In this document: positions 11,922-54,033 of the stretch, in pieces
How the letters are laid out: each line of letters begins with the position of its first letter
Numbering within the stretch: the first letter of the stretch is position 1
DNA from: a bacterium
Lineage (GTDB): Bacteria > Bdellovibrionota_C > UBA2361 > SZUA-149
DNA: 55,510 nucleotides
Assembly (NCBI GenBank): GCA_030433295.1
Contig: JAUIMJ010000001.1
Location: 1 to 55,510 of the forward strand
Direction: 5' to 3'
The notes under the pieces: generated by a model
The model's input: only the letters and a program-made list of their open reading frames with translations
Database searches by the model: none
What the model was told of the DNA's origin: nothing
Made by a program: the position numbers and the translations under genes

Positions 11922-11935
11922 AGAGGAGTGCCTCG

Positions 11936-14434: not shown

Positions 14435-14441
14435 GTATCCC

Positions 14442-15422: not shown

Positions 15423-15719
15423 AATTTGCAAACTCCAGTTACTTAATAAAACGTCACAAATATAGACCGCCGGGTTTCGGGTCTCCTGAGCCTCTGCGGT
15501 CGGTGTAATTCGCTGATAGCACGGGGCTAAGTATGTAGAGTTATAATGGCATTCCCGGAAACAGTCCAGTGTTTCCGAGGTATTTATTGCGGGACAGAAG
15601 CGGCCTGAGCGGCCTGCGGGCCGCCCTGAAGTCGATTTTGTGGGGACTGTGGGGTTTTATGGGTCCCCCCTGACGGGTTTTCCTTCCGCTTCAGCTTCCG
15701 GGAGTCGGGGGGCGTCTGC

Positions 15720-16157: not shown

Positions 16158-16158
16158 G

Positions 16159-16650: not shown

Positions 16651-16667
16651 GTCTTGTCGACTTCTTT

Positions 16668-17228
16668 CTATGTTGTTCCAAGTAAACGTTCTCGTACTTC
16701 AACCGCCTTTTTTCGGGCTCTCTTCAGCTTTGCTCGCACTGACTCAAGTGAGCAACCAAGCGTTTCGGCCAGTTCTGCGTAGCTAAGGCCCTGAGACTCT
16801 CGCAAAAGCAAAACGGAGCGGTATTCATCTGACATCCCGGATAAAATCTGCACAAGCTGTTGCCTGGTCTCAAGCGTTTCGCTGTCAGAAACTTCGTCCG
16901 CGATCTCCGGTATGGTGTCGAGGCCAAAAAACGAGCGCCTCTTTTGCTTCCTGCATTCGTCAATGCATCTGTTTGTCGCGATGCGATACAGCCAGGTTGA
17001 AAAGCTGGAGTCACTGCGAAACCCGGATAGCTTGACGTAAGCTTTGAGAAAAGTCTCCTGGGCAATGTCCTCTGCGAGACTGGGGTTTCGCAGCATCTGT
17101 GCACAGTAGCCTCGAATACGGGTTTCATATCTCCGAACCAGTTCCGCAAAAGCCTGATTTTTTCCCTCAAGACTAGCTGCAACAAGCTCCTCGTCGCTCT
17201 GGTCTTTGAAAAACAATGCCTGCGCCAT
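16668..17228 (-). CDS. ECF-subfamily RNA polymerase sigma-70 factor
   Basis: Region 2 (AEDIAQETFLKAYVKLSGFRSDSSFSTWLYRIATNRCID) and region 4 HTH (LSYAELAETLGCSLESVRAKLKRARKK). Confidence 0.9.
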   Translation of the reverse strand: MAQALFFKDQSDEELVAASLEGKNQAFAELVRRYETRIRGYCAQMLRNPSLAEDIAQETFLKAYVKLSGFRSDSSFSTWLYRIATNRCIDECRKQKRRSFFGLDTIPEIADEVSDSETLETRQQLVQILSGMSDEYRSVLLLRESQGLSYAELAETLGCSLESVRAKLKRARKKAVEVRERLLGTT

Positions 17229-17521
17229 CAGGGTACTATCCCAGGTAAACCTCTGTTTTGAGGTTCTCGCTTTTCTCCTGGGTTTTGACTCTCCGCAAGG
17301 TGTTTCATGTTGTGCTGTATCCTTGTCAGAGAGTCGCTACCCTCGATTAGCCATGGTGCATACTGCTCGCAGTATACTTGTTGTTTGCTCGCATCTTCGA
17401 TGCTCCAATATACCCATCCCTATGAAAGACTTTTCGACAACCTGGAAAGCATACTGGGATGAGTATATACCGCTGAGGCAGTCACTGTCATAGGTATCAT
17501 CGCGCTTTTTCTGCCTTGTTC

Positions 17522-17944
17522 CTAATCGTGATGATGCCCGCGATGCCCGCGCTTGCCGCGCTTCTTCCGACGTTCCTCGCGCTTCTCTTTCATCTTCTCA
17601 AGCTTTTCCCGTTGCTCGGGTGAGAGTAAAGCCGAAATCTCGGCGTGAACAGCGGCTCTGCGTTCTACCCGGCAGCGCTTCTTTTCAGAAAACTTTTCAC
17701 CCTTACATTTTGGTCCGGACTTGGCCTTCTTCAATATGTCATACACGGCGTCCGCCTGCTTGTCGCTGAGATCCAGCTTCTCCTGCATGCGATGAACGCG
17801 CATTTCAAGCCGGTGACCGTGCATCTTACCGGGTCCACCCTTGTCCCCCCCGGGCTCATCGTGAGCCAGGGCGATACCGGGAATGCCTAATGCTGCCACG
17901 AGTGCCAGGGTTAAAGTCGTTTTGATTAGACGTTTTTTGCTCAT
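17522..17944 (-). CDS. Periplasmic LTXXQ-motif (Spy/CpxP-like) protein with a basic, His-rich C-terminus
   Basis: Signal peptide MSKKRLIKTTLTLALVAALGIPGIALA. LDLSDKQADAV and LLSPEQREKL motifs. Tail ends RGHRGHHHD. GGAGAAAGAA precedes the ATG at 17944. Confidence 0.6.
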   Translation of the reverse strand: MSKKRLIKTTLTLALVAALGIPGIALAHDEPGGDKGGPGKMHGHRLEMRVHRMQEKLDLSDKQADAVYDILKKAKSGPKCKGEKFSEKKRCRVERRAAVHAEISALLSPEQREKLEKMKEKREERRKKRGKRGHRGHHHD

Positions 17945-18119
17945 TTCTTTCTCCAAATCTGTGAAAATTGTGATGCTGCCTTGCATTCTATAGAGGTCAG
18001 ACGCCAGCCTTCCAGAAAAGTGGCGCAAGGGAGAAAAAAATTATGCCTCTGGAGAAAGTATTTCCAGTCGTAATCCAGATTCCGGGCTGGAAGGCTGTTG
18101 GAAGCCATGCGCGATGAGA

Positions 18120-18617
18120 CTAAAGGCCGCAGCAGCGTTTGTATTTCTTTCCGCTTCCGCAGGGGCAGGGGCCATTTCTCGAGGGCGCCATAGAAGCCGA
18201 ATCCTCATCCTCAGCTTCGGTTTCTGTGGGCAGGACTCTACCGTCCACGTAAAACCAGCGATCGCCGACGCGATCGAAGCGCGCAATCTCATGATGGGTG
18301 TAATCGTTGCCGTTTTGGCTGAAGGAGGCGATGAACTCTACCGATGCTTTCTTTCCACCGGCATTATCCTTGGCTGAAACGATTTCAAGCCCTGTCCACT
18401 CAGAGGACCTCGACCATTCTGCAGAGCCCTTTTTGTCGAATCCCTTGCGATCCAGAAGCGGTATTGTTCTCACGAGGTAGTCAATCTCCCCCCTGGCAAA
18501 GGCAGCGTATCGTGAGCGCATCAGCGCCTCGGCAGTTGGGGCATGTCGCTCACCGGCGTGAAAGGGGCCACAACAGTCTTCATAGGCCTTTTCGCTACAA
18601 CAGGGGCAGGTGCTCAT
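18120..18617 (-). CDS. ychJ: YchJ-family (UPF0225) protein with N- and C-terminal SEC-C metal-binding motifs
   Basis: CPCCSEKAYEDCCGPFH at the N-terminus and CPCGSGKKYKRCCG at the C-terminus. The central NTF2-like region has the RSRYAAF motif. Confidence 0.85.
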   Translation of the reverse strand: MSTCPCCSEKAYEDCCGPFHAGERHAPTAEALMRSRYAAFARGEIDYLVRTIPLLDRKGFDKKGSAEWSRSSEWTGLEIVSAKDNAGGKKASVEFIASFSQNGNDYTHHEIARFDRVGDRWFYVDGRVLPTETEAEDEDSASMAPSRNGPCPCGSGKKYKRCCGL

Positions 18618-33702: not shown

Positions 33703-34287
33703 ATGGTAGAAGATCAAAAAAAACGTGCCTTGCTTGTGCTGGCGGAAGGCTGTGAAGAAATTGAAACGGTTGCGCCTATCGACGTTCTGACGCGTGTGGG
33801 CGTGGATGTCCTTGTTGCGTCTCTGAAACCTGGGCCGGTAAAGGCTGCTTACGGGACCACGCTTGTGCCCGATTGTACCCTTTCTGAGGTGGAGGGAGAT
33901 TTTGACGGTATTATCTGCCCGGGTGGAAAGGCGAATGCGCGGGCGCTGGCCGCGGATGAACTCGTCCGAAGCAAAATACAGGAATTTGCGCAGTCCGGAG
34001 CCCTTGTCGCGGCAATCTGCGCGGCACCAAGCCACGTGCTGGGAGAGAGTGCGGGAATTCTTCGTGGTCGACGTGCCTGCGGAGATCCGGGATTTCTCGA
34101 CAAGCTTCGCGACTCGGGGGCCCTGGTGCAGGATGTTCCGGTTTGTATTGATGACAATATCATTACCGCTACGGGACCTGGCACTGCGCTGCCCTTTGCG
34201 CTGAGTATTGCGGCATATCTTGTCGGCGATGAAGCGGTCGAACCTTTTTCGAAAAAGTGGGGGATCGACTACTGTAGACGAGGCTAG
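33703..34287 (+). CDS. DJ-1/PfpI-family protein (YajL/DJ-1 subgroup)
   Basis: ALLVLAEGCEEIETVAPIDVLTR, GG..N, and nucleophile elbow VAAICAAPS. Confidence 0.9.
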   Translation: MVEDQKKRALLVLAEGCEEIETVAPIDVLTRVGVDVLVASLKPGPVKAAYGTTLVPDCTLSEVEGDFDGIICPGGKANARALAADELVRSKIQEFAQSGALVAAICAAPSHVLGESAGILRGRRACGDPGFLDKLRDSGALVQDVPVCIDDNIITATGPGTALPFALSIAAYLVGDEAVEPFSKKWGIDYCRRG

Positions 34288-35333
34288 CCCCCTGAGCGCA
34301 TTTGATGGAGCAGGCGCAGGACTGGTCCTGCTTCCTGCTCGGGAAGTGAAACGAATGCTTCCATCATTGCAATCGACGGCGCGCAGCCGTCCTCTTCAGT
34401 GAAGGTTTCGTTATCAATTTTCTTCTGGGTTTCCTCTGGCAGCGTGGAAATCGCCTGATTCATCAGTGTCTCGATTCGTGTCCTGTCATCGTCGAGAATG
34501 GGGCTTTCCAGCGCCGACGCAACGGCTTTTGCGCTTAGTTCTTTTGAGGCAACTCTTGTGGTCTTCCAGCCTTCAGACGACTTGAGCTGCTGCATCTCTT
34601 CCGGGCTAAGTGCTTTCTTAATAACAAAGACCTTTGAACAAAGTTGTGGCGAAATCTTCTCGACCACCTTTCTTCTGTCAATGTGATTCTTGTAGTACGC
34701 GACGATGTCAGCGTCACTGCTCTTTGCAATCGTGCGGCCCTCGAGCATGAGAAGCTGGGTGTAGTGTTTACTAAACTCGCTCTGATTCTGTTCTCTGATG
34801 GCCTTCTCTATGCCATCGAACATGGCCTTCAGTTCGGGCAGGGCGTCGTGCAGCAGGCGAGCGCTGGGGTTGTCTGAGAAAAAGGCCTCGAGCGGCTTCA
34901 TGTTTGGCTTTTTACCGAGGGTTTTTTCTGTAGCTTTAGCGCACTCGTCAGAGGTAACCGCAAGGTTTTTGAATTTGTCGTGGAATTTTCCTCCAATACA
35001 TCCCCCGATTTTGCGTCCCCAGGTGCTACCTTCCTCAGGCAGCTTTATGAAGAATGGCAAGTCCGCTGCGACCTCGTCGACGCAGGAATCAAACAACTCG
35101 CCGCTCACTGCGGTAGAGCATTCTTCAGCGTCGAGGGAAAAACAGGAGGTAAACATCTGTCCTTCCCCGCAGACGGTCGTTGAGAATCTCTTCTTGAATC
35201 CGCTTTTCCAGAATGGCTTCAGGCTGAAGTCAGAGAAGGACTTGTCGCCACCGCAAGCGCTCAATGGAAGCAGCACCGTAAAAAGAACTAATGTGAGCAA
35301 AGAAAATCGGTTTTTAGCTGCAGTATGTTTCAT
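34284..35333 (-). CDS. Hypothetical lipoprotein
   Basis: MKHTAAKNRFSLLTLVLFTVLLPLSAC-GG has a lipobox (LSAC). ATG at 35333. No family recognised. Confidence 0.6.
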   Translation of the reverse strand: MKHTAAKNRFSLLTLVLFTVLLPLSACGGDKSFSDFSLKPFWKSGFKKRFSTTVCGEGQMFTSCFSLDAEECSTAVSGELFDSCVDEVAADLPFFIKLPEEGSTWGRKIGGCIGGKFHDKFKNLAVTSDECAKATEKTLGKKPNMKPLEAFFSDNPSARLLHDALPELKAMFDGIEKAIREQNQSEFSKHYTQLLMLEGRTIAKSSDADIVAYYKNHIDRRKVVEKISPQLCSKVFVIKKALSPEEMQQLKSSEGWKTTRVASKELSAKAVASALESPILDDDRTRIETLMNQAISTLPEETQKKIDNETFTEEDGCAPSIAMMEAFVSLPEQEAGPVLRLLHQMRSGG

Positions 35334-35417
35334 TTGCCTGGCCTTTAGGTATCCGGGAGTATCGAAGGGTAGAATAAACGGACTTGTGTAGTATTCCAAG
35401 AGGTATCTTTTGCACCG

Positions 35418-41836: not shown

Positions 41837-42523
41837 GTGGAATACGGAACAATGAACAATTCAAGCGGAGTCGCTCCATCACCCGAAGTCGCGCGTTTTC
41901 TTCGAGAGAACTGTGCAATCGCGAGAAAGAAGGGTGAGGCCATAAACCTGGATGACTGTTGTTACGGCAAGATACATAGGGGAGGTGGCTTCGCTGAACA
42001 ACCATCGAACTATTACTACTTTCTCGCCGGTATTGTTAATCACTTTGAGTTAAAACGCGTGTTCGAGGTTGGGACGCACTATGGCGGTTCTATTCGCTCG
42101 ATGATTCGCGGTCTTACGGACCAGAAAAGCAGGGATGAATCGCTCTACGCGACCGCTGATGTCACCTTCTACAACGCCGAAGCCTTCGGGCACTATCCGG
42201 ATACGCTCATTCGTCGTTTCCACGGGGATGCAGGGGCAGCCGAGGAGGTAGAAAAAGTAAAGAAGCTTTTCGGTGGTGAGCCCATTGATATGCTCTATGT
42301 GGATGCGATTCACAGTTACGATGGAACGGCCTTGCACGTTAATCTCTATGCAAATGCATTGAGGCCAAGGTTTCTCGTGCTTGACGATATTCACCTCAAT
42401 CATGAGATGGAGCGTCTCTGGAACGACATGGTGAAGATCTTTGGCGATCAGGCCTATGACGCGACGGAAATATCGGGTCGAGGCGAGTCCGGCTTCGGGG
42501 TTATTCTTATGAGGAACAGCTAA
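41837..42523 (+). CDS. Probable class I SAM-dependent methyltransferase (Methyltransf_24/CmcI-like)
   Basis: VFEVGTHYGGSIRSM (G-rich motif I-like), LYVDAIHSY and FLVLDDI blocks. Assignment is by motif resemblance only. Confidence 0.5.
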   Translation: MEYGTMNNSSGVAPSPEVARFLRENCAIARKKGEAINLDDCCYGKIHRGGGFAEQPSNYYYFLAGIVNHFELKRVFEVGTHYGGSIRSMIRGLTDQKSRDESLYATADVTFYNAEAFGHYPDTLIRRFHGDAGAAEEVEKVKKLFGGEPIDMLYVDAIHSYDGTALHVNLYANALRPRFLVLDDIHLNHEMERLWNDMVKIFGDQAYDATEISGRGESGFGVILMRNS

Positions 42524-42581: not shown

Positions 42582-43073
42582 TTAGTCCCGTATAAAATGA
42601 CAATTGTATCCGCCGGGATTCTTCTTCAAGTAGTCCTGATGGTATTCCTCGGCAGGGTAGTAGACCTTTCCTCGTTCAATTGTGGTGACGATCTTTGAGC
42701 CCCAGCGCGTTCCCTTCTTCTCCTTTTCAATAGCCGCCGCCGCACAGGCCTCCTGCTCCGGGGATGATGTGAAAATCGCGGAGCGATACTGTGTTCCGCG
42801 ATCATTTCCCTGTTGATTGAGCGTGGTCGGATCGTGAATCTTAAAGAAAAAATCGAGAATGCTTTCGAGAGAGGTCTGCGCAGGGTCATAGACGATGTTG
42901 ACCGCTTCAGCGTGTCCGCTTGTTCCGGTCTTAACGTGTTCGTAGGTCGCGGTCTCTTCGGAGCCCCCGATGTAGCCAACACTCGTATTAACAACGCCGG
43001 GCAGGTCTGCGAAGAGATGTTCTACTCCCCAGAAGCATCCGCCGGCCAGAACGATAGAAGAAGTTTCACTCAT
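42582..43073 (-). CDS. msrA: Peptide-methionine (S)-S-oxide reductase MsrA
   Basis: LAGGCFWGVEHLF active-site motif, GHAEAV, DPTTLNQQGNDRGTQYRSAIF, YHQDYL. Confidence 0.95.
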   Translation of the reverse strand: MSETSSIVLAGGCFWGVEHLFADLPGVVNTSVGYIGGSEETATYEHVKTGTSGHAEAVNIVYDPAQTSLESILDFFFKIHDPTTLNQQGNDRGTQYRSAIFTSSPEQEACAAAAIEKEKKGTRWGSKIVTTIERGKVYYPAEEYHQDYLKKNPGGYNCHFIRD

Positions 43074-43314
43074 AATTTTTCTTAATAAATATGTTTGTAT
43101 CGTGGTATACTAGCCTAACCTCAAGATGCGATTTTGCCTAGGCTGTTCGGTGGCTATTACGCTAAATCTGCATATATGCGTATGAATAAGAAAAAGGGTG
43201 GTGGCCCCATGCTCCGCCCATATGGCACCATGAACCTCTGAACTCGGCGCGGCGATGTCCGTGACGAGTGGGATTTTTGTCGTTCTCGTCCGTCCATACT
43301 GATGAGAACGATCT

Positions 43315-44505
43315 GTGAGAGGAATTGATGCACGTCAGCGCTTATGGAGAGGACGTTTGAATCGCAGGTCTAAAATCATTGCTGCACTGGTGATTTGTGT
43401 CGCCGCAGGGCTGTTTGCGGTCTTTTCCAGTGGTGTGTTCAGCGCGCCGGAGCGGGTACCACTGTCAGTAGTACGCGCGGAAGCGTTTGAGTTCACCGAT
43501 CTTATGCGTCGAAAGGGCAACCTTGGAATTTCCTGTGGGCTTAATAATGCGTGTCGGGAGGTACCGGGGCAGCACCTCACCAACAGTGCCTGGCAGATTC
43601 TCGGACTTTCCCGAATGCATACGGTTGACTCCAGGCGCTCATACCTTCCTGAACTAAAGACCAGTCTGAAGGCGTACTTCGATCCCAAAGGTCCATTTCA
43701 GGATCAGGCGTATTCATTTCATCAATTGTACGAAGCGTATCAGTTGACAGGGGAGAAAGAGTTTCTCATCTGGTTTGTTGATCGCATCGGAATCATGGTG
43801 CCCCACGCTAATGCTATCCTAAAGAGTGCCCCGGAAAAATTCGATCCCATGCTGGTTGCCACTCTGGCCCGGCAGTTGGGGCAGGCGGCAGCTCTGTTTT
43901 CAGACGCTTCTATGGAGAGCTTTCTTCAGGAACGACGGCGTTTACCTAAAGATGCTTCGCGCGCGAAGCTGGAGGCAAGGCGTAAGGCTGACTCATATCT
44001 GGCGCTCGCAAATGCACTGCTTGATTTCTCACGCTCTGATGAACGATTTTCTGAACCTGACGTTATTGAAGGTTTTGATGAAGCGGACCAGCGCTCATGT
44101 TTCAGATTCTGGGCACGGAGTGCGATGTATCTTGCCTCGGATAAACCCAAGGACTTCGCTCGGCTGCGGGCCTTTATGAAAGGTGCTGACTTTTTGTCGA
44201 AGAGTCGTGAGCAACTTCGTTTTTCTAACCTTCAGACCGTACTGCCCTGTATTCACGCGTTTCAGGAGCTTGGCGAGAAAGACAGCAAATTCAAGAAGAC
44301 CGCCTTGCATCTTCTGAAAGAGGTGGTTGTTCCGAACTGGGATGGCTCACGGAGAGACTTGTGCCGTGGGGACGGAGGATTCTTCGCTGATGTCCGGCCG
44401 AAGGAGCGTCTCTGCGATCAGAATACCAAATCGGTCTCTGATAATGCCTGGGTTATATTTTTGCTAAGCAATGAGGTCGCTTCTGTTGAAGTTGAAATTA
44501 ACTAG
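43315..44505 (+). CDS. Hypothetical N-terminally membrane-anchored protein, first gene of the 43.3-49.8 kb cluster
   Basis: [24 protein letters not shown], then a ~340-aa helical soluble domain. The real start may be TTG 43357, which is preceded by GGAGAGGA. Confidence 0.55.
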
Positions 44506-46450
44506 ACGTATTGTTTATCCGTTTCTTTTTGCAACGGCAGTATTGCTCTCGTTCCCTTTGGCGAGCATGGCGCAGAGATCCTGCCCGCAAGGACCTTCAT
44601 CCTGTCCGGCATGCGCGGAGGGCGAAATTTGTCGCTGTCCTGAACCCATACCCGGTTGTCCCCGTGTGTGTTCCTGTGCAGAGAATGAATGCAACGACAT
44701 CGACTGCGGAGATCAATGTTGTTACGATAATTCCAGTTCCGGGCCTCATTGTAACCCGTGTAATAGCGATTGCCCGGAGCCTAATCCCTGCGAGCAGGAA
44801 ACGACCTGCGAAGACTCCTCCCAGGCCTGTTCTACGGTAAGTGTTCCCTGTCCGGGCTGTGGAAATGTGACCTCACCGCAGTGTGAGTGTGAGCCCTGTC
44901 CGACGCCGACACCGGAGCCCACTGCTGAACCGACCCTGGAGCCAACGCCGGAACCAACGGCAACTCCTGAGCCAACTGCGGAACCTACGGAAACACCGGA
45001 ACCTACGGCTACACCGGAACCAACCGCTGAGCCTACAGAAACGCCGGAACCTACATCGACTCCGGAACCGACCGCCACACCAGAGCCTACGCCTACACCG
45101 GAGCCAACTCCAACGCCTCGACCTACGTCGACTCCTCGACCTACGCCGACGCCGCGGCCGACTCCTCCGCCTACACCGCGTCCGACACCATCAATTACGC
45201 CACTACCTACGCCGCCTCCTACGCCGGAGCCGACGATCTGGTGGACGCCCGAACCGACCTGGACACCTCCGCCCACGCCGGAACCAACCGTATGGTGGAC
45301 GCCTGAACCAACGTGGACACCTTCTTCAAGTAGCAGCTCGTCAGCGAGTTCTGCGTCCTCAAGTAGTGCGTCCTCTGCGAGCTCAACCTCTTCGTCGACG
45401 TCATCCTCGACCTCGTCTACGAGTTCTTCGACGTCCAGTTCAAGCTCGGCAAGTTCCTCGAGCGCAAGCTCGGCCAGTTCAACGAGCGCAAGCTCGGCAA
45501 GTTCATCAAGTGCCAGCTCGACGAGTTCATCTACCAGTAGTTCGACGTCCTCCGCCTCGAGTGCGAGTTCCAGTACGACTTCATCTGCGTCCAGTAGTAC
45601 CTCGTCAACGTCCAGTACTTCGAGTGCCAGCAGCACGAGTTCCTCGACCTCGAGTAGTGCCTCTTCGACGTCCAGTGCTTCAAGCGCCTCCTCGGCGAGT
45701 AGTTCGACGTCCAGCTCTACCTCTTCGTCGACCTCCTCAGCGAGTTCGTCTACTAGTTCAGCGAGTTCCTCGACAAGTTCATCTGCAAGCTCATCCACCA
45801 GCTCGTCGACGAGCAGCTCAACGTCATCTGCTTCGAGTACGAGTTCAAGTACCAGCTCCTCTACCTCAAGCAGTGCGTCCTCGACCTCTTCCTCAGCGTC
45901 GAGTGCAAGTTCGTCGACTTCGAGTGCCAGTTCCAGCACTTCCTCGTCAACATCTAGCAGTACGTCTTCGAGCACCTCTTCTGCCAGTTCGTCGACCAGT
46001 TCCTCAACATCGAGTGCAAGTTCGTCGACCTCGAGCGCCAGTTCAAGTAGTACGTCCTCTGCGAGTTCGACGTCATCGTCCACTTCTTCCGCGAGTTCGT
46101 CGACCAGCAGTTCAACCTCATCGAGTACCTCAAGCGCCAGCTCGACCAGCTCCTCGACGAGTTCGTCCACGAGCTCATCGACGAGTAGCTCTACCTCCTC
46201 TGCTTCAAGTACGAGTTCTTCAACCTCTTCTTCTACGAGCTCGACCGCGTCATCATCGACCTCTAGTGCATCGAGTTCAAGTTCCTCGAGTTCGAGCAGT
46301 AGTTCGTCGAGTGCTTCCAGTTCAACGTCGAGCTCAACCTCGAGTAGCACGTCGAGTTCGAGTTCGTCGACGTCGTCAGCGTCCAGCGCGACCTCGAGTA
46401 GTTCTACTTCGTCAGGTGGGGCTCCGAAGATTCCAATGCTGATTCGCTAG
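44471..46450 (+). CDS. Secreted mucin-like protein: signal peptide, ~110-aa Cys-rich domain (~23 Cys), ~140-aa Pro/Thr/Glu linker, then a 364-aa tract of only Ser/Thr/Ala
   Basis: Signal peptide [26 protein letters not shown]. Cys-rich CPxC-type region. (EPTxTP)n repeats and duplicated PPPTPEPT(I/V)[13 protein letters not shown]-only codons from 45323 to 46414. Co-directional with and overlapping its neighbours. The start (ATG 44471 or TTG 44486) is uncertain. Confidence 0.7.
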
Positions 46451-46491
46451 CAGGTTCCGGTAGATACACTTGGGTTTATGGAAGAGGTGCG

Positions 46492-46938
46492 ATGACAGAA
46501 AAGAGAAGATGTGAGTCAGGAGTGGCAATTACGGAATTCGCCATATCTGCTCCGCTGATTATATTGCTGCTTGTTGGTCTGATAAATCTGGGTTCCATGT
46601 TGTGGCAGGTTCATGTGTTTTCTGATGCTGCCCGCGAGGGGGCCCGGGTGGCAGCAAATCGATCAAACTTTGATAATGCCTGTGCTAATCTGGTGACAGA
46701 CGCGGGTAGTGCTACCGCAGAGTATATGAATAATGCGGGCAGTAATTATACGGCCAGTTGGGAAATGGTTGACGTGCAGCTCGCAAATGCCACCTGGGAT
46801 GGACTTTCGATGGACTTCGTGCGCGTCAGTACCAAGACAAATTCGAGCGACAACTGTCTACTCTGCTTTGATGGCATCCTTACGTATATAGACGTAGAAC
46901 TATGGAGCAGTTTCGCACTTGAAAAGCCTTGTACGTAA
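46492..46938 (+). CDS. TadE-like (Flp-pilus pseudopilin-type) protein
   Basis: N-terminal signature GVAITEFAISAPLIILLLVGLINLG, then FSDAAREGARVAA. Confidence 0.8.
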   Translation: MTEKRRCESGVAITEFAISAPLIILLLVGLINLGSMLWQVHVFSDAAREGARVAANRSNFDNACANLVTDAGSATAEYMNNAGSNYTASWEMVDVQLANATWDGLSMDFVRVSTKTNSSDNCLLCFDGILTYIDVELWSSFALEKPCT

Positions 46939-47368
46939 ATCTAACAGTGTCGCCGAAGAAAAGGGGGCGACTCTCGTAGAATTTGTGCTGGTGCTCATCG
47001 TCACGCTTGGGGTCATTGGTTTTATGATTGACTCAGCCGTCGCGTATTTTCACTATCACCTTCTCGTGCATGCAAATGCCGCTACGGTGCGGCGTCTTGC
47101 GGTGAATGTTCAGGGAGCGACAAGTGAACCGGACCTCGCCAATCTGGCTGAGACCATGGTTGATCAGCGCTATCGGAATGCCTATGGAGTGCAGATGCCC
47201 TCTGCGGACTTTGCCGCGAGGATTGAACGTACGCCAGATGCTGCGTGTCTTCTGCGAGTTCGCGCTGAGATGCCATTTCGTTGTTTCTTCTGTGTGTATT
47301 TTGATGGCCCCTTTAATTTGATTACTGAAGCAGAAGCTCTGATAGAGGATGAGTGTTTCACTTGTTAA
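46919..47368 (+). CDS. TadE-like protein (second copy)
   Basis: GATLVEFVLVLIVTLGVIGFMIDSAV signature. TTG start overlaps the previous gene by 20 nt. Confidence 0.7.
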   Translation: MKSLVRKSNSVAEEKGATLVEFVLVLIVTLGVIGFMIDSAVAYFHYHLLVHANAATVRRLAVNVQGATSEPDLANLAETMVDQRYRNAYGVQMPSADFAARIERTPDAACLLRVRAEMPFRCFFCVYFDGPFNLITEAEALIEDECFTC

Positions 47369-48222
47369 GAGAACCTGTGGCTTTGGAAAAGCAATTGTCT
47401 GAATACCTGAGTAGCGCTTGCACTAAACAGCAGTCTGAGCAGCAGACTGAGCGGCAGGATGAGCAGGAGACTGAGCGGCAGGATGAGCAGGAGACTGAGC
47501 GGCAGGATGAGCAGGAGAGGGGCGCCATTCTGATCTTCGTGGTCTTATTGGTCGTGGTGCTCATCGCCCTGACTGGTCTGGTGGTAGACCTTGCGCGCCT
47601 TCAATATACGGTGATTCGAGCACAGCAATCTGCTGACGCGGCAGCGCTTGCTGCTGTGATCCACCTCGATGACCCGAGCGATATCGATAACTGGAGAAAG
47701 ACAAAGAAAGCGGTTCTGGCTTCGCTTTCTCAGAGTCAGTTATACGCTTTGGACGATGATGCTGCGGAGTCACTCAAAGCGGCGAACAGCGACTACCCGA
47801 TGAGGACCATGCGATTTCTCGAGGGAGAAACTACCCCACACGATTACACCTGGTATGCGAAACATGCGGGATCTGCAGGCAATCTTGGCGTTGAAGTCGT
47901 TCGGGGTGTATTCTGCTATGTGCAGACCTCCCTTGTGCCTCCCAGCTTTGAGCGTCGATGGTATGCGCTCGAGAGAACTAATCACTATTGCAAGGCAAAC
48001 AGTGTGCAGGTCGATATTACGGTACGTGAGGTGCCGACTACCTTTGCCACGATTTTCGGCGTTCGGGAAATGAATGACGTACGTGTTTCCGCTCAGGCAC
48101 ATCTTAATCCCGCCCCCTATACCTGTGGACATGAGCTTTGTGACGATTTGGGAATTGTTGGTGAAATTAGCAGTCCCTATGAATATCCCTACGCACAATT
48201 CAATCCTGACCCGCCCTGTTAG
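47353..48222 (+). CDS. TadG-like (Tad/PF13400-type N-terminus) protein without an obvious vWA domain
   Basis: GAILIFVVLLVVVLIALTGLVVDLARLQYTVIRAQQSADAAALAA. GTG start overlaps the previous gene by 16 nt. The N-terminal extension carries a TERQDEQE x3 repeat. Confidence 0.7.
   Translation: MFHLLREPVALEKQLSEYLSSACTKQQSEQQTERQDEQETERQDEQETERQDEQERGAILIFVVLLVVVLIALTGLVVDLARLQYTVIRAQQSADAAALAAVIHLDDPSDIDNWRKTKKAVLASLSQSQLYALDDDAAESLKAANSDYPMRTMRFLEGETTPHDYTWYAKHAGSAGNLGVEVVRGVFCYVQTSLVPPSFERRWYALERTNHYCKANSVQVDITVREVPTTFATIFGVREMNDVRVSAQAHLNPAPYTCGHELCDDLGIVGEISSPYEYPYAQFNPDPPC
47446..47517 (+). repeat. Perfect 24-nt x3 in-frame tandem repeat (actgagcggcaggatgagcaggag, encoding TERQDEQE)
   Basis: Units at 47446-47469, 47470-47493 and 47494-47517 are identical base for base. 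Confidence 0.95.
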
Positions 48223-48281
48223 AGCGATGTGGCCCTGGCGTTCAGCAATATTCATGCTGTCTATTTTCCGAGGAGAGTGAG

Positions 48282-49787
48282 GTGCGCTTGAATCGCAGAG
48301 GACTGTATCCGGCTCTGTTCCTCCTTGGCTTTGCCTGCTCAAGTCTGGTCGCCTTTCTGCTTTTCGATGCGATACCACATGTTGAGGATGAGCATGCGAT
48401 ATTGCGTCAGGCAAAAATCTTTAGCTCGGGGGCATTCAGTGCTGAGCTCCCGGCGGTGCCTTCCGCATTTTCAATTCCCTTCATGGTGGAATATGAGGGC
48501 AGGCAGTTTAGTAAGTATCACCCGGGTTTTTCCTTACTGTTGGTGCCGGGAGTTCTGCTCGATGCCCCCTGGTTGATCAATGCCTGCTTAAGCGGATTGA
48601 ATCTGTGTCTAGTGTTTCGTCTAGTCGGAAGGAACTGGAATCGACAGATTGCCGCCCTGACCATTTTCTTGCTGCTTTGCTCTCCTATGTTTCTTGCTAT
48701 CTCAGGGTCACTGTTTTCTCACACGGCTCTTTTGAGCTGCCTGCTCAGTTTTCTGCACTTCTTTTTCCGGCTGCGTTCCGATACCTCTGTGCGACCCGCC
48801 ATATTTGCGGGATGTGCTCTTGGCTTTGCCGCATGCATTCGACCATTTTCTGCGGCCCTGCTCGCGCTGCCTTGTGTCCTGACCGCCGTGTGGCACATTT
48901 GTGCTACGCGTGACTCTGCACGGGAGCGGTATGTTCGGAGCTATGTGATACTGGGCAGCCTCACTCTTTTATTGTGTGGCGTACTGCCCCTTTACAACTA
49001 CATGACAAGCGGATCTGCGATGACTAACGCCTATACCTTGATCTGGCCCTACGATACTCTGGGTTTTGGGCCGGAGAGCGGACGCGGGGTTGGGGGGCAC
49101 ACCTTTGCAAAAGGTCTGCTCAATCTCAAATTGGATATGAGACAGTATGCGAGTCTTTCATTGGGATGGCCCTCGCTTGCCGGTGTTCCGTTGATCGTTC
49201 TTCCGATACTTGCCGGACTTTTACTTAAACCACGCCGTGCACAGGATCTTCTATTATTGCTTCCGCTGCTGATTCTTGCGCTTGGCTATACCTTCTACTG
49301 GGCCCGGGGAGGTAGTCTTTTCGGTGCGCGATACTACTTCGAATCCATCCCTTTTATTTGTGCGCTTGTCGCTGTGGGCATTTACAAGCTCGCCCTGCTT
49401 AGCAAAGCGACCTCTCTGACGTATCTTCTGGTAATTCTTACTGCGTGCTGGGGTGCGCAATCTGAGTCTCTGCCTATGCTGGCAAAACTGAAAGACCTGT
49501 ATGGCATAGATGCTAGTGACTCTGAGGTAGTTGACCGCGCAGGGATATCAAATGCCCTGGTTTTTGTATCAGTACGACATTGGACTGACTATGGTCGACT
49601 GTCCTGGAGGAATGAAGCCGATCTTCAGGGAGATATAGTATTCGCGATGGATGGCGGCACCGTGCGCAATAAAGCCGTTCGTGCATTACATCCACACCGA
49701 GAGGTGTTTTCCTTTGATCGACGCAGAGAACCAAAACTCCTTAGCGTTGAAGAACCACTCGATAAGAGAGAAGTTATCCGGAAGTAA
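48282..49787 (+). CDS. Polytopic GT-C-fold-like glycosyltransferase (PMT_2/ArnT-like)
   Basis: At least 10 hydrophobic helices by eye. An acidic DE pair sits in the first extracytoplasmic loop right after TM1 (LLFDAIPHVEDEHAILRQAKIF). A C-terminal ~100-aa soluble domain is present. The assignment rests on architecture and motif, not on a search. Confidence 0.6.
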   Translation: MRLNRRGLYPALFLLGFACSSLVAFLLFDAIPHVEDEHAILRQAKIFSSGAFSAELPAVPSAFSIPFMVEYEGRQFSKYHPGFSLLLVPGVLLDAPWLINACLSGLNLCLVFRLVGRNWNRQIAALTIFLLLCSPMFLAISGSLFSHTALLSCLLSFLHFFFRLRSDTSVRPAIFAGCALGFAACIRPFSAALLALPCVLTAVWHICATRDSARERYVRSYVILGSLTLLLCGVLPLYNYMTSGSAMTNAYTLIWPYDTLGFGPESGRGVGGHTFAKGLLNLKLDMRQYASLSLGWPSLAGVPLIVLPILAGLLLKPRRAQDLLLLLPLLILALGYTFYWARGGSLFGARYYFESIPFICALVAVGIYKLALLSKATSLTYLLVILTACWGAQSESLPMLAKLKDLYGIDASDSEVVDRAGISNALVFVSVRHWTDYGRLSWRNEADLQGDIVFAMDGGTVRNKAVRALHPHREVFSFDRRREPKLLSVEEPLDKREVIRK

Positions 49788-49788
49788 A

Positions 49789-51255
49789 TCAGGTTCCGCA
49801 GAAGGTATGCTGCACGACTTCGTGCTCCTCGGGTGGAGCCATAAACCTCTCGTGTTCTCCCTGATCGACAAAGGGCCGGGAAAGAATTCCGCTGAGTAAC
49901 TTCGCCGGCTCAAAGTTTCTATCTTCCACCGCAGCTTGTATGACTTCCTCAACGCGATGATTTCGGGGAATGAATGCAGGGTTCGACAGTCTCATGGTTT
50001 CAGCGACTGCTGCATGCGAACCCGATTCTTGCTCCAGCCGTTTTCGCCAGCGCGGAAGCCAGGGTTCCAGGCTTTTACGCATAGGTTCGCTAAAGCAATC
50101 ACTGATGCTTCGCTCGAGTAACAGCCCATGTAAACTTCGGAAACTATTCGTGTAGTCCGCTTCGTTTTCGAGCAGGATGTTCAGGAACTCTTCGATCAAG
50201 CTAAAATCATCGTCCACCGCAGTGCTAAGCCCCAGTTTACTTCCCATTGCCTGCAGCCAGGCACTCCGAAATATATCTCCGAACGTCTGAACAGCGTTGT
50301 TGGCAAGACTTACTGCTTCCTTTTGTTCCTCGGCAAGAATAGGAAGTAGGGATTCGGCAAAACGTGCAAGGTTCCACTGAGCAATAGGACCCTGGTTTGC
50401 GTAGGCGTAGCGACCATTTCGATCGATATAGCTATAGACTGTTGCGGGATCGAATGCGTCCATAAAGGCGCAGGGTCCGTAGTCTATTGTTTCACCCGAG
50501 ATGCTCATATTATCCGTGTTCATTACGCCGTGGATAAAGCCGACCGCCATCCACTGAGCAACGAGATGCGCCTGGACGCCTATTACCGTATGAAGAAGGG
50601 CGACATAGGGATTTTCCTCCCGGCGAAGTTCCGGGTAATGTCGATCTATAGTGTATTCTGCGAGAAGCTGCAGTCCCTCTATGTCTTTTCGGACGGCGAA
50701 GTATTCGAAGGTTCCAATTCGTATGTGACTGGAAGCAACTCTTGTAAAAACACCTCCGGGTAGCCTGCTCTCTCGACGCACCGTCTCACCGCTCGTAACC
50801 GCGGCAAGCGCCCTCGTCGTCGGGATGCCGAGATGATGCATCGCTTCACTCAGGACGTATTCTCGAATAACGGGTCCCAGGGCCGAGCGTCCGTCGCCAC
50901 GTCGGGAGTACGGTGTTCTTCCGGCACCTTTGAGCTGAATGTCTCGCCGTATTCCATCAGTATCCACGAGTTCTCCGAGGAGAATTGCCCGACCGTCGCC
51001 AAGCTGTGGCACGAAATTACCAAACTGATGTCCGGCATAGGCAAGCGCGATAGTATGTTCGTCCTCACTAAAGGCGTTGCCAGAGAACAAAGACTCCGGA
51101 TGGGACGAGAGCAATTCGTCCGGGGAAAGGCCGAGACTCAGCGCAAGCTCCGCGTTAAATAGGGCGAGCTCAGGTTCCTTAGAGCTGATTGGCGCAATCC
51201 GCGAATAGAATCGTTCCGGCAACGTTTGGTAGGTATACTCGAAAGGAATGTGCAT
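49789..51255 (-). CDS. selO: Protein adenylyltransferase SelO (YdiU/UPF0061)
   Basis: YAGHQFGNFVPQLGDGRAILLGE, QLKGAGRTPYSRRGDGRSALGPVIREYVLSEAMHHLGIPTTRALA, HGVMNTDNMSI. Confidence 0.95.
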   Translation of the reverse strand: MHIPFEYTYQTLPERFYSRIAPISSKEPELALFNAELALSLGLSPDELLSSHPESLFSGNAFSEDEHTIALAYAGHQFGNFVPQLGDGRAILLGELVDTDGIRRDIQLKGAGRTPYSRRGDGRSALGPVIREYVLSEAMHHLGIPTTRALAAVTSGETVRRESRLPGGVFTRVASSHIRIGTFEYFAVRKDIEGLQLLAEYTIDRHYPELRREENPYVALLHTVIGVQAHLVAQWMAVGFIHGVMNTDNMSISGETIDYGPCAFMDAFDPATVYSYIDRNGRYAYANQGPIAQWNLARFAESLLPILAEEQKEAVSLANNAVQTFGDIFRSAWLQAMGSKLGLSTAVDDDFSLIEEFLNILLENEADYTNSFRSLHGLLLERSISDCFSEPMRKSLEPWLPRWRKRLEQESGSHAAVAETMRLSNPAFIPRNHRVEEVIQAAVEDRNFEPAKLLSGILSRPFVDQGEHERFMAPPEEHEVVQHTFCGT

Positions 51256-51275: not shown

Positions 51276-51367
51276 ACGTAGTGCGAACTACGTAAATGAA
51301 ACACTACGAAAATAATACAAGGCGTAGTTGGGACTACGTAACTATAAAAGGCGTAGTGCGAACCACG
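51276..51367. promoter_or_regulatory. Array of three related palindromes CGTAGT-N4-ACTACG in a divergent intergenic region (candidate operators or RNA hairpins)
   Basis: 51276-51293 acgtagt-gcga-actacgt. 51323-51338 cgtagt-tggg-actacg. 51352-51367 cgtagt-gcga-accacg. There is also a half-site cactacg at 51302-51308. Confidence 0.45.
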
Positions 51368-51645
51368 TTAATGCGTTCGGATGTTTGCGAAAATACTTCT
51401 CTTCTTCTTAGCATGTTTATCGAATGTTAAGAAGAAATAGAGCAGCAAATGAACCCTGAGTGAAGCGCCAGCCTCGCGAAATTTGGCTTTGCGAAAAGTC
51501 GTGCTAGGCTGCGGGCCACAATATGAGAAGAGCAACTAGATCTATTCGCGTCCTCCGAGTCAATTGCAGGTGGAAGCGAATAGGGGAAGTGATAGGTTTT
51601 TACCCGCCCCGTTTTCATCATCCTTCTAAACAACCGGAGTATAGT

Positions 51646-52680
51646 ATGGCAGCAAAGCGCCCCTACCCACCGGTTGCGGTGGTGGATCTCGTCGTTGCCG
51701 GGGTTCAGGCACATATTGCGGACCCCGATAATCCAAAGTTCGATTCTGAAACCGGAGCAAATATCCTCAGGCACTGGCGTCTTTTTTGTGAGTATCTCCT
51801 CGAGCGGGAAGCGATGCAGCTCTCCTGCGAAGACGAGGTTCCTGTTCTTTCCTGGAAGCCCGGATCCAGAAAACGTAAATCCCCAGAGGCACACTTTACG
51901 CGTCTTCTTGTCGATTCCAAAGGGCAGGCGTTTTCTGAGTATCTCAGCAAGAGATTTACGGAAGTTAAACCAGCGACGGTTCGGACTGAGACATCCTCCT
52001 TGCGAGCATGTATCAGAATTCTCCAGGCGGCTGGTGAGACAGAGTTCAGGGCCGAAGATTTGCTCAATCCGAGCGTGGCAGCCGATCCGCGGACAGTAGT
52101 CCCCTTCACGGAGGAGATGGTCGCTCAGGCCTTTGGTCTGCAATCGCTACAGCTGGCCACCCGGCGGGATATCGGCGTATATGTCGCCTTCATTCGTGAG
52201 CATGTATCGCCCACGCCGAGCTGGAAGCAGGAGGTGGCGGCAAGCAAGCGACTTCGCAGAGTCAAACGTAGAGAAACTCGAGAGCGATTAGCTAAGGAGG
52301 CAGTAGTAATCGAGACTGTCACCGGCCAGATGATTTTCTGCGCAGCGGAGTGGACTCAAGCGTTCCTTGAGTATGTGCAGCCCAATCGCCAACTCAAACA
52401 GGTGATTGTGGCGATACAAAAGTATTATCGTTGGCTGGCAGAAGAGGGGCTCTGTGACTTTGATGCTGCCGCACTCGGGCAGCCGCTTCGTTTGCGAGAT
52501 CAGGGGATTTTCAAGAAACCCTTGCGATTTCGCTCGGGCTGTCCGGTAAAGCAATTTACCGGGGATGAATCGGCTCCTCAGGATCCGGAGGCAGCTGCGA
52601 CAGATGCTCATGTCTCGCGTGCGAAGATGAAGAAGAAGACGAGGAAGAAGTTGAGCCGAAGAGGTAGAGATACTGGATGA
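51646..52680 (+). CDS. Hypothetical protein with a very basic C-terminal tail
   Basis: GGAG is 6 nt upstream of the ATG at 51646. 344 aa. Tail is RAKMKKKTRKKLSRRGRD. No catalytic motif recognised. Confidence 0.5.
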   Translation: MAAKRPYPPVAVVDLVVAGVQAHIADPDNPKFDSETGANILRHWRLFCEYLLEREAMQLSCEDEVPVLSWKPGSRKRKSPEAHFTRLLVDSKGQAFSEYLSKRFTEVKPATVRTETSSLRACIRILQAAGETEFRAEDLLNPSVAADPRTVVPFTEEMVAQAFGLQSLQLATRRDIGVYVAFIREHVSPTPSWKQEVAASKRLRRVKRRETRERLAKEAVVIETVTGQMIFCAAEWTQAFLEYVQPNRQLKQVIVAIQKYYRWLAEEGLCDFDAAALGQPLRLRDQGIFKKPLRFRSGCPVKQFTGDESAPQDPEAAATDAHVSRAKMKKKTRKKLSRRGRDTG

Positions 52681-52884: not shown

Positions 52885-54033
52885 CTATGCGATGAGAATA
52901 ATCAGAGCAGTGAGAGCAGCGATTGTCCCAAGTAGGTACATGCCGCTGCGTCTTCTGCTGATTCCGCGGTTTCGCAGATACGTGCAGAGCACCCCGTTTG
53001 GCTTGATGAAATGAATGCCCTGTGCCACCAGGTTCTTCTCGGCGTCAGCCTCGATGCGCTTGAGCTTTAACACAGCGGAAAACTCAGCCGCCGTCTGATA
53101 ACGCGCTTCGGGGGCTTTCGCTCCCGCTTTCTTGATGAATGCCTCGAACCAGCATGGGACTCCTGCATCCTTTACTGCAAGCTCCGGCAGGGGGTCGGCA
53201 CAATGGCTTTTGGCCAGCTCGAACCAATTATCCTCTTCATACGGGCGGTGACCCATTACGATTTCATAGGCGAGGACGCTGAGGGAGTAGATATCGCTTG
53301 CCAGAGACACCGGCTCGCAGCGCACCTGCTCCGGCGACATATAATACGGAGTCCCAAGGCACATGCCGGTTTTTGTCAGTGAGAAGTCTTCGTTTACCGA
53401 ACGAGCAAGGCCCAGATCGGTAACTTTCGGTGTGCCATCCTCGTCAAAGATAATGTTTCCCGGCTTGATATCTCTGTGAATGATTCCCTTCTCATGGAGT
53501 GCTGCAATGCCTTCTGAAATCTGAAGCAGCATTTCTACCGCCTCACGAAAGGGGATCTGCTTGTCAGGCGCAAGAAGAAGCATCTCCTTGAGATTGCCGC
53601 CTTCGAGCAGCTCCATGACCACAAATGGTACGCCATTCTGAGTCACTCCGCTGTCGATTATGTCGATCACGTTTGGGTGAGAGATACTACGGGTGTATTC
53701 TATTTCTCGTTCGAAGCGAGTAACGCTTTCTTCATCATTAAAGGCTTCATTCGTGAGGACCTTTAGCGCAACAAAGCGTTGCGTTTCATTGTCGTAGCAG
53801 CGAAACACCCAGCCACTTGAGCCCTCACCGATGCGCTCGTGCACCACGTAGCGAGGCGAGAGTTCTTCACTGATTTTTTCAGCATTGATAATGTGAGAAT
53901 GATCCTGCATGTCATTTGCCGATGTCTGGCTCAATAATCGCTTTCCGTCTCCGACCTGAGTATCCCCGGGACTACGCATTAAATAATCGATATAAACAGG
54001 CGAAAGCTTTAGGTTTTTGAGCGGGTAGCTCAA
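52885..54033 (-). CDS. Hanks-type serine/threonine protein kinase with a C-terminal membrane anchor
   Basis: GEGSSGWVF (G-loop), VALKVL, HRDIKPGNIIF, VTDLGLAR, GTPYYMSPEQ. Terminal TM MYLLGTIAALTALIILIA. Confidence 0.9.
   Translation of the reverse strand: MSYPLKNLKLSPVYIDYLMRSPGDTQVGDGKRLLSQTSANDMQDHSHIINAEKISEELSPRYVVHERIGEGSSGWVFRCYDNETQRFVALKVLTNEAFNDEESVTRFEREIEYTRSISHPNVIDIIDSGVTQNGVPFVVMELLEGGNLKEMLLLAPDKQIPFREAVEMLLQISEGIAALHEKGIIHRDIKPGNIIFDEDGTPKVTDLGLARSVNEDFSLTKTGMCLGTPYYMSPEQVRCEPVSLASDIYSLSVLAYEIVMGHRPYEEDNWFELAKSHCADPLPELAVKDAGVPCWFEAFIKKAGAKAPEARYQTAAEFSAVLKLKRIEADAEKNLVAQGIHFIKPNGVLCTYLRNRGISRRRSGMYLLGTIAALTALIILIA

Follow-up and report, generated by a model that had tools for sequence, protein, structure and literature searches.

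The minor pilins TadE, TadF and TadG of Aggregatibacter, and CpaJ, CpaK and CpaL of Caulobacter, are encoded by overlapping genes and carry the Pfam TadE and Tad N-terminal domains, and their genes belong to, or lie close to, a tad locus that also holds flp, tadV, tadA-C and rcpA (PMC12607857, PMC13533445). TadG/CpaL, of about 600 aa, is the apical subunit with an adhesin domain (PMC12607857); this domain is of the vWA type and the protein has its own C-terminal strand. In the Tad-like Kil system of Myxococcus xanthus, TadE/TadF/TadG-like sets of three genes (KilL/KilM/KilN) lie away from the machinery, as "Tip" clusters dispersed away from the main locus. The Kil Tips are predicted disulfide-rich heterotrimers whose prepilin peptidase is encoded elsewhere, with several alternative sets per genome and with the distal functional domain placed within the large KilN/TadG; the tip1-4 genes are restricted to Myxococcota (PMC12075869). 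In type IVa pili, tip proteins of the PilC/PilY1 type dock on the apical minor pilin by beta-strand addition from their C-terminal 6-10 residues, and new tip subunits can be predicted from their synteny with minor pilins (PMC13533445). Here we analyse a 55.5-kb stretch of bacterial DNA (contig JAUIMJ010000001.1, positions 1 to 55,510; "the window" denotes the whole of these 55,510 nt) and, within it, a cluster of six plus-strand open reading frames (ORFs). Five of the six form a conserved unit in which a TadE/TadE/TadG-type trio of minor-pilin-like genes is joined by a gene for a membrane-anchored protein resembling carbohydrate-active enzymes (CAZymes) in fold (gene 1) and a gene for a secreted mucin-like protein (gene 2). 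This five-gene set suggests a pilus-tip or secretion accessory module that has so far gone undescribed. The dispersed Myxococcus Tip clusters, compared on architecture, are the nearest described system. The addition of a CAZyme-like membrane protein and a Cys-capped mucin-like protein to a Tad trio is not described before in the literature searched, which held no module of a Tad trio with a serine-rich protein, a mucin or a glycosyltransferase. The genes of the cluster are as follows, a slash marking the predicted cleavage site.

43315..44505, plus strand: gene 1, N-terminal membrane anchor (residues ~21-39) and predicted periplasmic (alpha/alpha)6 barrel
44471..46450, plus strand: gene 2, 659-aa secreted mucin-like protein
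46492..46938, plus strand: TadE-type minor prepilin 1 (TadE1), PF07811 at 47 bits (cut-off 22.9), E=2.8e-12, motif ESG/VAITEF
46919..47368, plus strand: TadE-type minor prepilin 2 (TadE2), PF07811 at 18.9 bits, below the 22.9 cut-off, motif EKG/ATLVEF
47353..48222, plus strand: small TadG-type minor-pilin-like protein, PF13400 at 35.3 bits (cut-off 22.3), E=1.5e-8, motif ERG/AILIF
48282..49787, plus strand: GT-C fold membrane glycosyltransferase, PMT_2 PF13231 at 30.2 bits (cut-off 26.1) and Glyco_transf_22 PF03901 at 25.6 bits

An initial annotation of this DNA, made without database searches, had proposed the six co-directional genes, and the ORF check agrees with it on every coordinate and, from these coordinates, on the spacing of the genes, which overlap by 35, 20 and 16 nt or stand 41 and 59 nt apart. 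All the peptide strings that it quoted are present in the translations, and its TadE/TadE/TadG assignments are borne out by the profile scores above, with the motif added for the sub-threshold second TadE.

The evidence for a conserved unit comes from the neighbourhoods of gene 1 homologues, five of which could be placed in their genomic context (L093-L097) and which, with the window, give six loci. In all six, gene 1 is followed by a gene-2-type ORF on the same strand, usually overlapping it or within 15 nt. At the five other loci this ORF starts with a signal peptide, continues with a head of about 110-140 residues that includes 21-26 Cys, and then runs into repeats rich in P/T/S/D. Applied as a rule, the architecture was found in 5/5 ORFs downstream of gene 1 homologues and in 1 of 2,530 control ORFs of at least 180 aa, the single control being the window's own gene 2. 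A gene-2-type protein is the obligate partner of the gene 1 family; gene 1, which the initial annotation had left undescribed, is the most consistent partner of the mucin-like gene.

The full set of five genes recurs on L097, a metagenome contig of 21 kb in ENA whose source is another, distantly related uncultured bacterium (tetranucleotide r of about 0.7 to the window). Here the homologues of TadE1 (31.5% identity, E=8.5e-22 by tblastn; 32.2% in a MAFFT alignment; four conserved Cys columns), TadE2 (34% identity, E=4.5e-21; a common C-terminal ALIEDECFT and four conserved Cys columns) and the TadG-like protein (39% identity, E=3e-39; five conserved Cys columns) precede a gene 1 homologue (28% identity, E=9e-31) and a 589-aa gene-2-like protein, separated by spacers of 5-7 nt or overlapping. 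The gene order is E1-E2-G-g1-g2 in L097 versus g1-g2-E1-E2-G in the window, in each case on one strand. That the five genes have been kept together through a rearrangement, at 28-39% identity, speaks for selection on their linkage and is good evidence of a functional module. The conserved unit is therefore gene 1, gene 2, TadE1, TadE2 and the TadG-type gene, and the link between mucin-like gene and Tad-like trio, proposed from the window, now has the support of L097 and stands at two loci. Other searches added little: a metagenome scan with the TadG alignment returned one generic TadE-TadE-TadG trio (L098), the gene 1 alignments were too divergent for pattern design, a scan with a three-sequence alignment returned nothing, and scans of viral contigs and plasmids were empty.

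The product of gene 1 contains a single hydrophobic segment and has no Pfam or NCBIfam match. A word-indexed search was also empty, and would have left it an orphan, whereas an exhaustive phmmer search recovered 82 representatives at E<=1e-3, including 46 at E<=1e-10. Gene 1 is the founding member of a protein family that has no Pfam or NCBIfam model and occurs in uncultured bacteria including SAR324, the source of its only named relatives. At least one SAR324 metagenome-assembled genome (MAG) carries several copies (paralogues GYA55_04135 and GYA55_04570), and the gene is probably multi-copy also in the organism behind L093 and L095, two contigs of one sample (SRR21359052) that each carry a gene 1-gene 2 pair and have a genome-like tetranucleotide r of 0.89. 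An AlphaFold2 (AF2) model built from a 30-sequence alignment reached a pLDDT of 92.9 and a pTM of 0.88. Among the PDB matches listed by Foldseek are glycoside hydrolases (GH) of families GH88, GH76 and GH105, BT_3782 and cellobiose 2-epimerase, with GH9-type endoglucanases ranking lower; the template-modelling (TM) scores lie at 0.45-0.55, the best E value is 6e-5, and all matches are carbohydrate-active enzymes. A profile search against the PDB gave weak matches only (E>=0.13), to GH76, GH9 and epimerase. The predicted fold is thus common to gene 1 and the GH88/GH105 unsaturated glycuronyl hydrolases, GH76 alpha-1,6-mannanases and cellobiose 2-epimerases, and the weak profile matches fall in the same families, without significant sequence similarity. 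Four invariant Cys, W93, D343, the motifs HQL and GDGG and the N-terminal membrane anchor set gene 1 apart from these (alpha/alpha)6 enzymes. The residues invariant in the family (W93, C262, C312, D343, C350 and C367) fit a periplasmic domain that is disulfide-bonded or metal-binding.

The gene 2 protein begins with a signal peptide (aa 1-34, ending in ASMA/Q), followed by a Cys-rich head (aa 35-143; 23 Cys in the entire protein), a linker of PT/PE repeats (aa 144-284) and a tract made of Ser, Thr and Ala only (aa 285-648, nt 45323-46414), of which 73% is Ser. This is the longest S/T/A-only run of the protein and has exactly the 364 residues first reported for it. All six Ser codons are used in the tract, so selection acts on its protein composition, and neither a simple DNA repeat nor slippage on a single triplet accounts for it. 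The protein ends in a short hydrophobic tail (KIPMLIR), with no LPXTG at the C-terminus, and the three complete gene-2-type proteins, ending in KIPMLIR, DVPRLLW and RAPLIAQ, have hydrophobic tails of the P-x-L-[IL]-x type. Between gene-2-type proteins, position and architecture are conserved and sequence is not: a hidden Markov model (HMM) of the five other heads misses the window's head even with --max, and the low-complexity tails differ in composition at every locus. Two further ORFs over the gene 2 repeat, at 44746-46350 (minus strand) and 44883-46442 (plus strand), are shadow frames produced by it. Automatic calls over such PT, S and TG repeats are also mis-framed or placed on the wrong strand elsewhere, yielding products such as "VGVGVG", "PVLVPV" and "DSDTEPD" (L095 6574-7080; L097 11694-12005 and 12363-12857; L093 11666-12112), and many contigs with members of the gene 1 family measure no more than 1-5 kb and break off inside repeats. 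Loci of gene 1 and gene 2 are systematically broken and mis-framed in short-read assemblies, and so are under-annotated.

Long Ser-rich tracts with heavy O-glycosylation are known from the Gram-positive serine-rich repeat adhesins Fap1, GspB and SraP, which receive their glycans from GtfA/B while still in the cytoplasm, leave it through SecA2/SecY2 and are anchored through LPXTG. Gene 2 resembles them in its long Ser-rich tract with S/A/T periodicity. SecA2/SecY2, GtfA/GtfB and an LPXTG anchor were not found among the window ORFs scanned, and the host is a diderm, as an OmpA-type outer-membrane protein and a PEP-CTERM protein in the window indicate.

Both TadE proteins have a short charged leader and a prepilin-peptidase site followed by a hydrophobic helix, and a six-frame scan of the window for G/xxxxE[FY...] with a hydrophobic helix matched only these two genes. 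The first is preceded by a Shine-Dalgarno (SD)-like GGAAGAGG. The second, although its profile match is below threshold, is homologous to TadE2 of L097, and the G/xxxxE motif is present in both. In L097 the two sites read G/SAMAEL and G/ASMVEA. The TadG-like protein has 289 aa, about 235 of them after the leader, and lacks Glu at +5; its Tad_C match is sub-threshold (18.3 bits against a cut-off of 22.1), and no vWA or other large domain was matched by Pfam. Its motif ERG/AILIF, and ERG/VTLPF in L097, fit the consensus G/A-X4-F/E for cleavage of CpaL by CpaA (PMC12607857). The trio thus has in common with TadE/F/G and CpaJKL the cleavage consensus, G/xxxxE[FY] in the TadE types and G/A-X4-F/E in the TadG type, along with the Pfam domains and the overlapping genes, whereas its TadG-type member is small beside canonical TadG/CpaL and has no vWA match. 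It likewise differs from the Kil Tips, since the distal domain lies there within a large KilN/TadG and the window's TadG-type protein is small, the cluster instead encoding a Cys-rich mucin-like protein as a product of its own, together with the CAZyme-like membrane protein. Known relatives of the TadG-like protein are limited to P0022, the L097 copy and the more distant L098. The trio of L098, on a high-GC metagenome contig, consists of overlapping TadE, TadE and TadG (533 aa) genes at 986-3766, between genes for an aminotransferase and a secreted protein, with no tad machinery in the 5 kb of that contig; orphan-looking TadE-TadE-TadG trios are probably common.

Two details concern the 5' part of the TadG-like gene. 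A near-perfect (98%) 24-nt tandem repeat of 3.5 copies at 47436-47518 gives the cytoplasmic leader three ETERQDEQ units ahead of the predicted cleavage site, and because it is in frame, a change in copy number would alter the leader only. The gene call in the sequence collection gives 281 aa for the 289-aa ORF; a start at the in-frame GTG at 47377 would account for it, and the 16-nt overlap with TadE2 would then become an 8-nt gap.

No flp pilin, TadV/CpaA peptidase, TadA/CpaF ATPase, TadB/C platform or RcpA/CpaC secretin was found in the window as far as tested, that is, in a six-frame prepilin scan and in Pfam scans that took in 30 further ORFs, among them all those of at least 370 aa. These ORF and motif scans agree with what the initial annotation had seen in the 55 kb. 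In the 18.5 kb of L097 no tad machinery was found either, and the small ORFs upstream of its trio, checked as Flp pilins, have no prepilin motif. Canonical trios lie in or near a tad locus, whereas none of its other genes was found in the 55 kb of the window. Since the trio carries cleavage sites, it needs a peptidase and an assembly machine from outside the cluster, and the description of the cluster as self-contained fails at this point, all three pilin-like proteins having prepilin-peptidase sites.

The sixth gene, 59 nt downstream of the TadG-like gene, co-directional and with its own SD sequence GAGGAG, is a different case. Its product was initially called a GT-C-like glycosyltransferase, and the predicted structure confirms the GT-C fold: an AF2 model on 15 family members has a pLDDT of 84 and a pTM of 0.87, and in the PDB the top ~47 Foldseek matches, including all 24 at E<=0.001, are GT-C enzymes, with the first other fold at E>0.5. 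The matches include ALG12, ArnT, STT3/PglB/AglB, ALG9, AftB and Pmt4, at TM scores of ~0.5 and E values of ~1e-6; ArnT is the second best (TM 0.54), Pmt4 ranks 23rd, and Pmt1/2 33rd or lower. There is no match to PF02366 (protein O-mannosyltransferase, PMT) in the Pfam scan and none to ArnT in NCBIfam, where a putative glycosyltransferase of the LA_3751/LA_3752 family scores 51 bits, below its cut-off of 200, and a profile search of the PDB gives only STT3A (E~0.01). The DE pair noted directly after the first transmembrane helix (TM1) is real, and belongs to P-H-V-E-D-E in the first periplasmic loop, where the family motif is P-H-x-(E/D)-D-(E/S); in the alignment of 15 members H33 hardly varies, and conservation extends to the (E/D)-D-(E/S) positions. 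By its predicted fold the 48282-49787 product is a GT-C enzyme for which no acceptor class stands out. GT-C fold enzymes use polyprenyl-phosphate-linked donors at the periplasmic face. Fold and acidic motif in the first loop after TM1 are common to the window's enzyme and ArnT (GT83), PMT (GT39), STT3/PglB/AglB, ALG9/ALG12 and AftB/Emb, from which it differs in its membership of a rare family of its own, with 20 homologues in a set of 5.8e9 proteins and none above 39% identity, in its marginal PMT_2 match and in its small C-terminal alpha/beta domain. The pilin arabinosyltransferase TfpW, likewise a GT-C enzyme, is encoded next to pilin genes, and the position of the window's gene beside pilin-like genes is analogous to this, position alone being compared.

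Conservation separates this gene from the five others. The closest relatives of the GT-C gene, P0002 and P0003 (38-39% identity), are flanked by a two-component pair on one side and by ferredoxin/2-oxoacid oxidoreductase genes on the other, and remoter ones adjoin LPG-synthase and fatty-acid-hydroxylase genes (P0012), a Bac_transf priming transferase (P0005) or beta-propeller proteins. No TadE or TadG neighbour was detected, by gene calls and motif scan, at the closest relatives or in four further homologue contexts, and L097 has no GT-C gene in its 18.5 kb. The view that the glycosyltransferase is a conserved partner of the cluster finds no support in these contexts; the neighbourhood is not conserved for the GT-C gene, but it is for the other five. 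An apparent exception was rejected. The GT-C gene beside the gene 1-gene 2 pair of L093 is of the ArnT type (E=8.7e-15 to 5EZM), has no sequence similarity to the window's enzyme and heads an ABC-transporter operon on the opposite strand. Equal G+C content, with L005 from the same project as L097, had prompted a test of whether L097 and the contigs with the closest GT-C homologue (L001-L005) belong to one organism, in which case the GT-C gene would have been shown to be unlinked there; the tetranucleotide correlation (r=0.08-0.30, against 0.85-0.93 within contigs) rejects this.

The cluster is bordered on both sides by opposite-strand genes, which the Pfam matches identify as the msrA and selO genes named in the initial annotation, and a promoter candidate lies in the divergent intergenic region between msrA and gene 1:

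42582-43073, minus strand: msrA, PMSR E=2.9e-63
43082..43111, plus strand: sigma-70-like promoter candidate from a consensus scan, TTAATA-18-TATACT with extended -10 TG
49789-51255, minus strand: selO, SelO E=4e-122

In the consensus scan the counts of promoter and terminator sites in the region are not above those of shuffled sequences; the promoter candidate is therefore weak, and transcription as a single unit is putative. No tRNA and no Rfam element was detected in the window. A synteny probe with SelO in 185,579 species genomes gave best identities of 57-60%, in mixed phyla, and none of the 80 selO loci examined carries a gene of the cluster. As SelO is at most 60% identical to anything in GTDB, the organism has no close sequenced relative there, and the interval is not demonstrable as an insertion. 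In three Gammaproteobacteria MAGs (L017, L022 and L057, at ~10000-15200), selO is followed by an opposite-strand HdeD-like gene and then, on its own strand, by a DsbD/thioredoxin-like gene, msrB and msrA; as selO and msrA also flank the module in the window, this suggests a recurrent redox-repair neighbourhood interrupted by the module. Just upstream of the selO start on the minus strand, at 51277-51367, the 16-bp palindrome CGTAGT-N4-ACTACG occurs three times in 90 bp (chance expectation 0.05; three copies reached in 0/100 shuffles) and resembles a set of operator sites at which a dimeric selO regulator would bind.

Further from the cluster, a eukaryotic-type Ser/Thr kinase is encoded at 52885-54033 (minus strand), 3 kb from the module. 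In L096 two Pkinase genes (7348-9878) lie directly upstream of the gene 1 homologue, and in L095 a PP2C phosphatase gene (3265-4137) lies upstream; such genes may be a recurring regulatory neighbour or may reflect kinase-rich genomes. Glycan-modification genes lie near both five-gene modules: in the window a Methyltransf_24/CmcI-like gene of the sugar O-methyltransferase type at 41837-42523 (plus strand), just beyond msrA, and in L097, downstream of the module at 13299-18557, NTP_transf_5, methyltransferase-like and GT2 genes. A PEP-CTERM-sorted protein (1212-1958, minus strand) and a protein with the domain of NttA, a Legionella type II secretion system (T2SS) substrate (34284-35399, minus strand), make it likely from sequence that the host has exosortase and type II secretion systems. 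Two plus-strand ORFs have no Pfam match, 2341-4524 (727 aa) and 51523-52680 (385 aa); the latter overlaps a 238-aa minus-strand ORF and is a putative gene only.

The explanation that we favour, with a probability of about 0.5, is that the cluster holds a Tad tip-type minor-pilin set coupled to a probably glycosylated mucin-like partner, with the Tad machinery encoded elsewhere. The three pilin-like proteins bear what, from sequence, are class III-type leaders with prepilin-peptidase sites. By comparison with the Myxococcus Kil Tips and Caulobacter CpaJKL, these would be cleaved by a TadV/CpaA-type peptidase encoded elsewhere, and the cleaved trio would assemble into a heterotrimer that serves as tip or initiation complex of a Tad (type IVc) machine likewise encoded elsewhere. 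In keeping with this, Cys columns are conserved in all three pilin-like proteins and the prepilin motifs are kept in both genomes; the Myxococcus Tips are reported to be disulfide-rich (PMC12075869). As the TadG-type protein lacks the large adhesin domain of canonical TadG/CpaL, a functional head may be supplied in trans by the gene 2 protein, which would be carried at the pilus tip or pushed out by a pseudopilus. It might dock through its short hydrophobic extreme C-terminus, in the manner of the beta-strand addition of PilC/PilY1. The likeness to PilC/PilY1 on PilK-type pilins is conceptual: a large non-pilin protein is encoded beside minor pilins, and gene 2 has a hydrophobic end after a long disordered tract, whereas PilY1 is a type IVa pilus protein with a beta-propeller/vWA fold and nothing mucin-like, and docking by gene 2 is hypothetical. 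Judging from its fold, gene 1 could act on a glycan that the gene 2 protein carries or binds, and in this genome the GT-C enzyme may glycosylate the P/T/S-rich tract from the periplasmic side. The predicted folds of both proteins, with the acidic loop motif of the GT-C enzyme, point to glycan chemistry around a P/T/S-rich secreted protein.

Several observations weigh against this explanation. A Tad machine, Flp pilin or peptidase is not demonstrable for this organism from the 55 kb of sequence. The link between trio and pair rests on only two loci, the window and L097, and three of the six loci end with the contig inside repeats, which limits the view of the trio. L096, where both flanks are visible, has the gene 1-gene 2 pair with no trio within 10 kb and an IS30-type transposase directly after the pair, and the TadG relative P0022 ends an overlapping trio of 195, 160 and 204 aa with no gene-1-sized call (~400 aa) nearby, in the 4 kb of contig upstream of the trio and among the calls downstream; the two halves can thus exist apart. 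The gene 2 heads are not detectably homologous, docking of the gene 2 tail on the trio is a hypothesis by analogy, and membership of the GT-C gene in the module is not supported by conservation, although co-expression with it in this genome stays possible from its orientation, spacing and good SD sequence. The same separation of halves would be expected if the genes were neighbours with no common function, the trio being spare or alternative Tad minor pilins for a pilus encoded elsewhere, gene 1 and gene 2 an independent surface-glycoprotein unit, and the GT-C gene unrelated. The family sizes (82 representatives of gene 1 against only three relatives of this TadG type) and the frequency of orphan TadE-TadE-TadG trios, as in L098 and among the Myxococcus Tips (PMC12075869), fit that account. 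We nevertheless hold it to be rather unlikely, because the five genes are adjacent and co-directional in two genomes at 28-39% identity despite their rearranged order, with tight or overlapping spacing across the gene 2/TadE and TadG/gene 1 junctions.

Of the other readings, the one advanced in the initial annotation is very improbable: the six genes would make up a self-contained machine for export of the mucin-like protein, its O-glycosylation by the GT-C enzyme and its display, with no tad locus. The lack of tad machinery in the 55 kb of the window and the 18.5 kb of L097 speaks for it, and the confirmed GT-C fold, orientation and spacing of the last gene, with its own SD sequence, agree with it; against these stand the cleavage motifs conserved in the trio and the GT-C gene itself, absent from L097, the only other full module, and never adjoining Tad-like genes in the relatives examined. 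No route is known by which minor pilins could be processed and assembled in the absence of prepilin peptidase, ATPase and platform. A trio that works as a type II-secretion-like pseudopilus piston, expelling the gene 2 protein through a secretin instead of displaying it at a tip, is unlikely, even though the genomic evidence for it equals that for tip display and the data in hand do not separate the two; it would still need machinery encoded elsewhere. The TadG-like protein is without Glu+5, as is GspK, the apical T2SS pseudopilin. Tip pseudopilins of the T2SS are known to load substrates (summarised in PMC12075869), which also speaks for a piston. For the GT-C enzyme alone, action on a lipid or polysaccharide (lipid A/LPS as for ArnT, or an envelope glycan as for Aft/Emb and ALG), with any glycosylation of gene 2 left to enzymes encoded elsewhere, is close to an even possibility and about equally likely as action on gene 2. 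ALG12 and ArnT are its top structural matches, ahead of the protein O-mannosyltransferases, it has no PF02366 match, it is not conserved with the module, and homologues adjoin the LPG-synthase/fatty-acid-hydroxylase (P0012) or Bac_transf (P0005) genes; yet it lies 59 nt from a cluster with a 364-residue S/T/A tract, an ideal substrate for O-glycosylation, and protein glycosyltransferases of the oligosaccharyltransferase (OST) and PMT types score nearly as well in the fold search.

Tip display as favoured above could be extended, speculatively and with a low chance of being right as a whole, to a Tad filament that is "mucin-tipped". Here the C-terminal strand of gene 2 would be taken up in trans by the adhesin-less TadG-type protein, as PilK takes up that of PilC/PilY1, a disulfide-knotted head would stand on a long O-glycosylated S/T/P stalk, a GT-C enzyme would add the glycan on the periplasmic side and gene 1 would remodel or transfer it, and the rapidly diverging heads and tails and the several paralogous pairs per genome would represent exchangeable tip specificities. 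Tad pili are widespread organelles of adhesion and predation, and only since 2025-2026 has it become clear that TadE/F/G trios are exchangeable tips that set their function. If the favoured explanation is true, tip diversification extends to cargo supplied in trans, and the cluster would provide the first link between Tad tips and periplasmic protein glycosylation. Regardless of the tip model, the analysis adds a new family of 82 representatives in which a membrane-anchored (alpha/alpha)6 barrel is accompanied by a Cys-rich secreted partner with P/T/S repeats.

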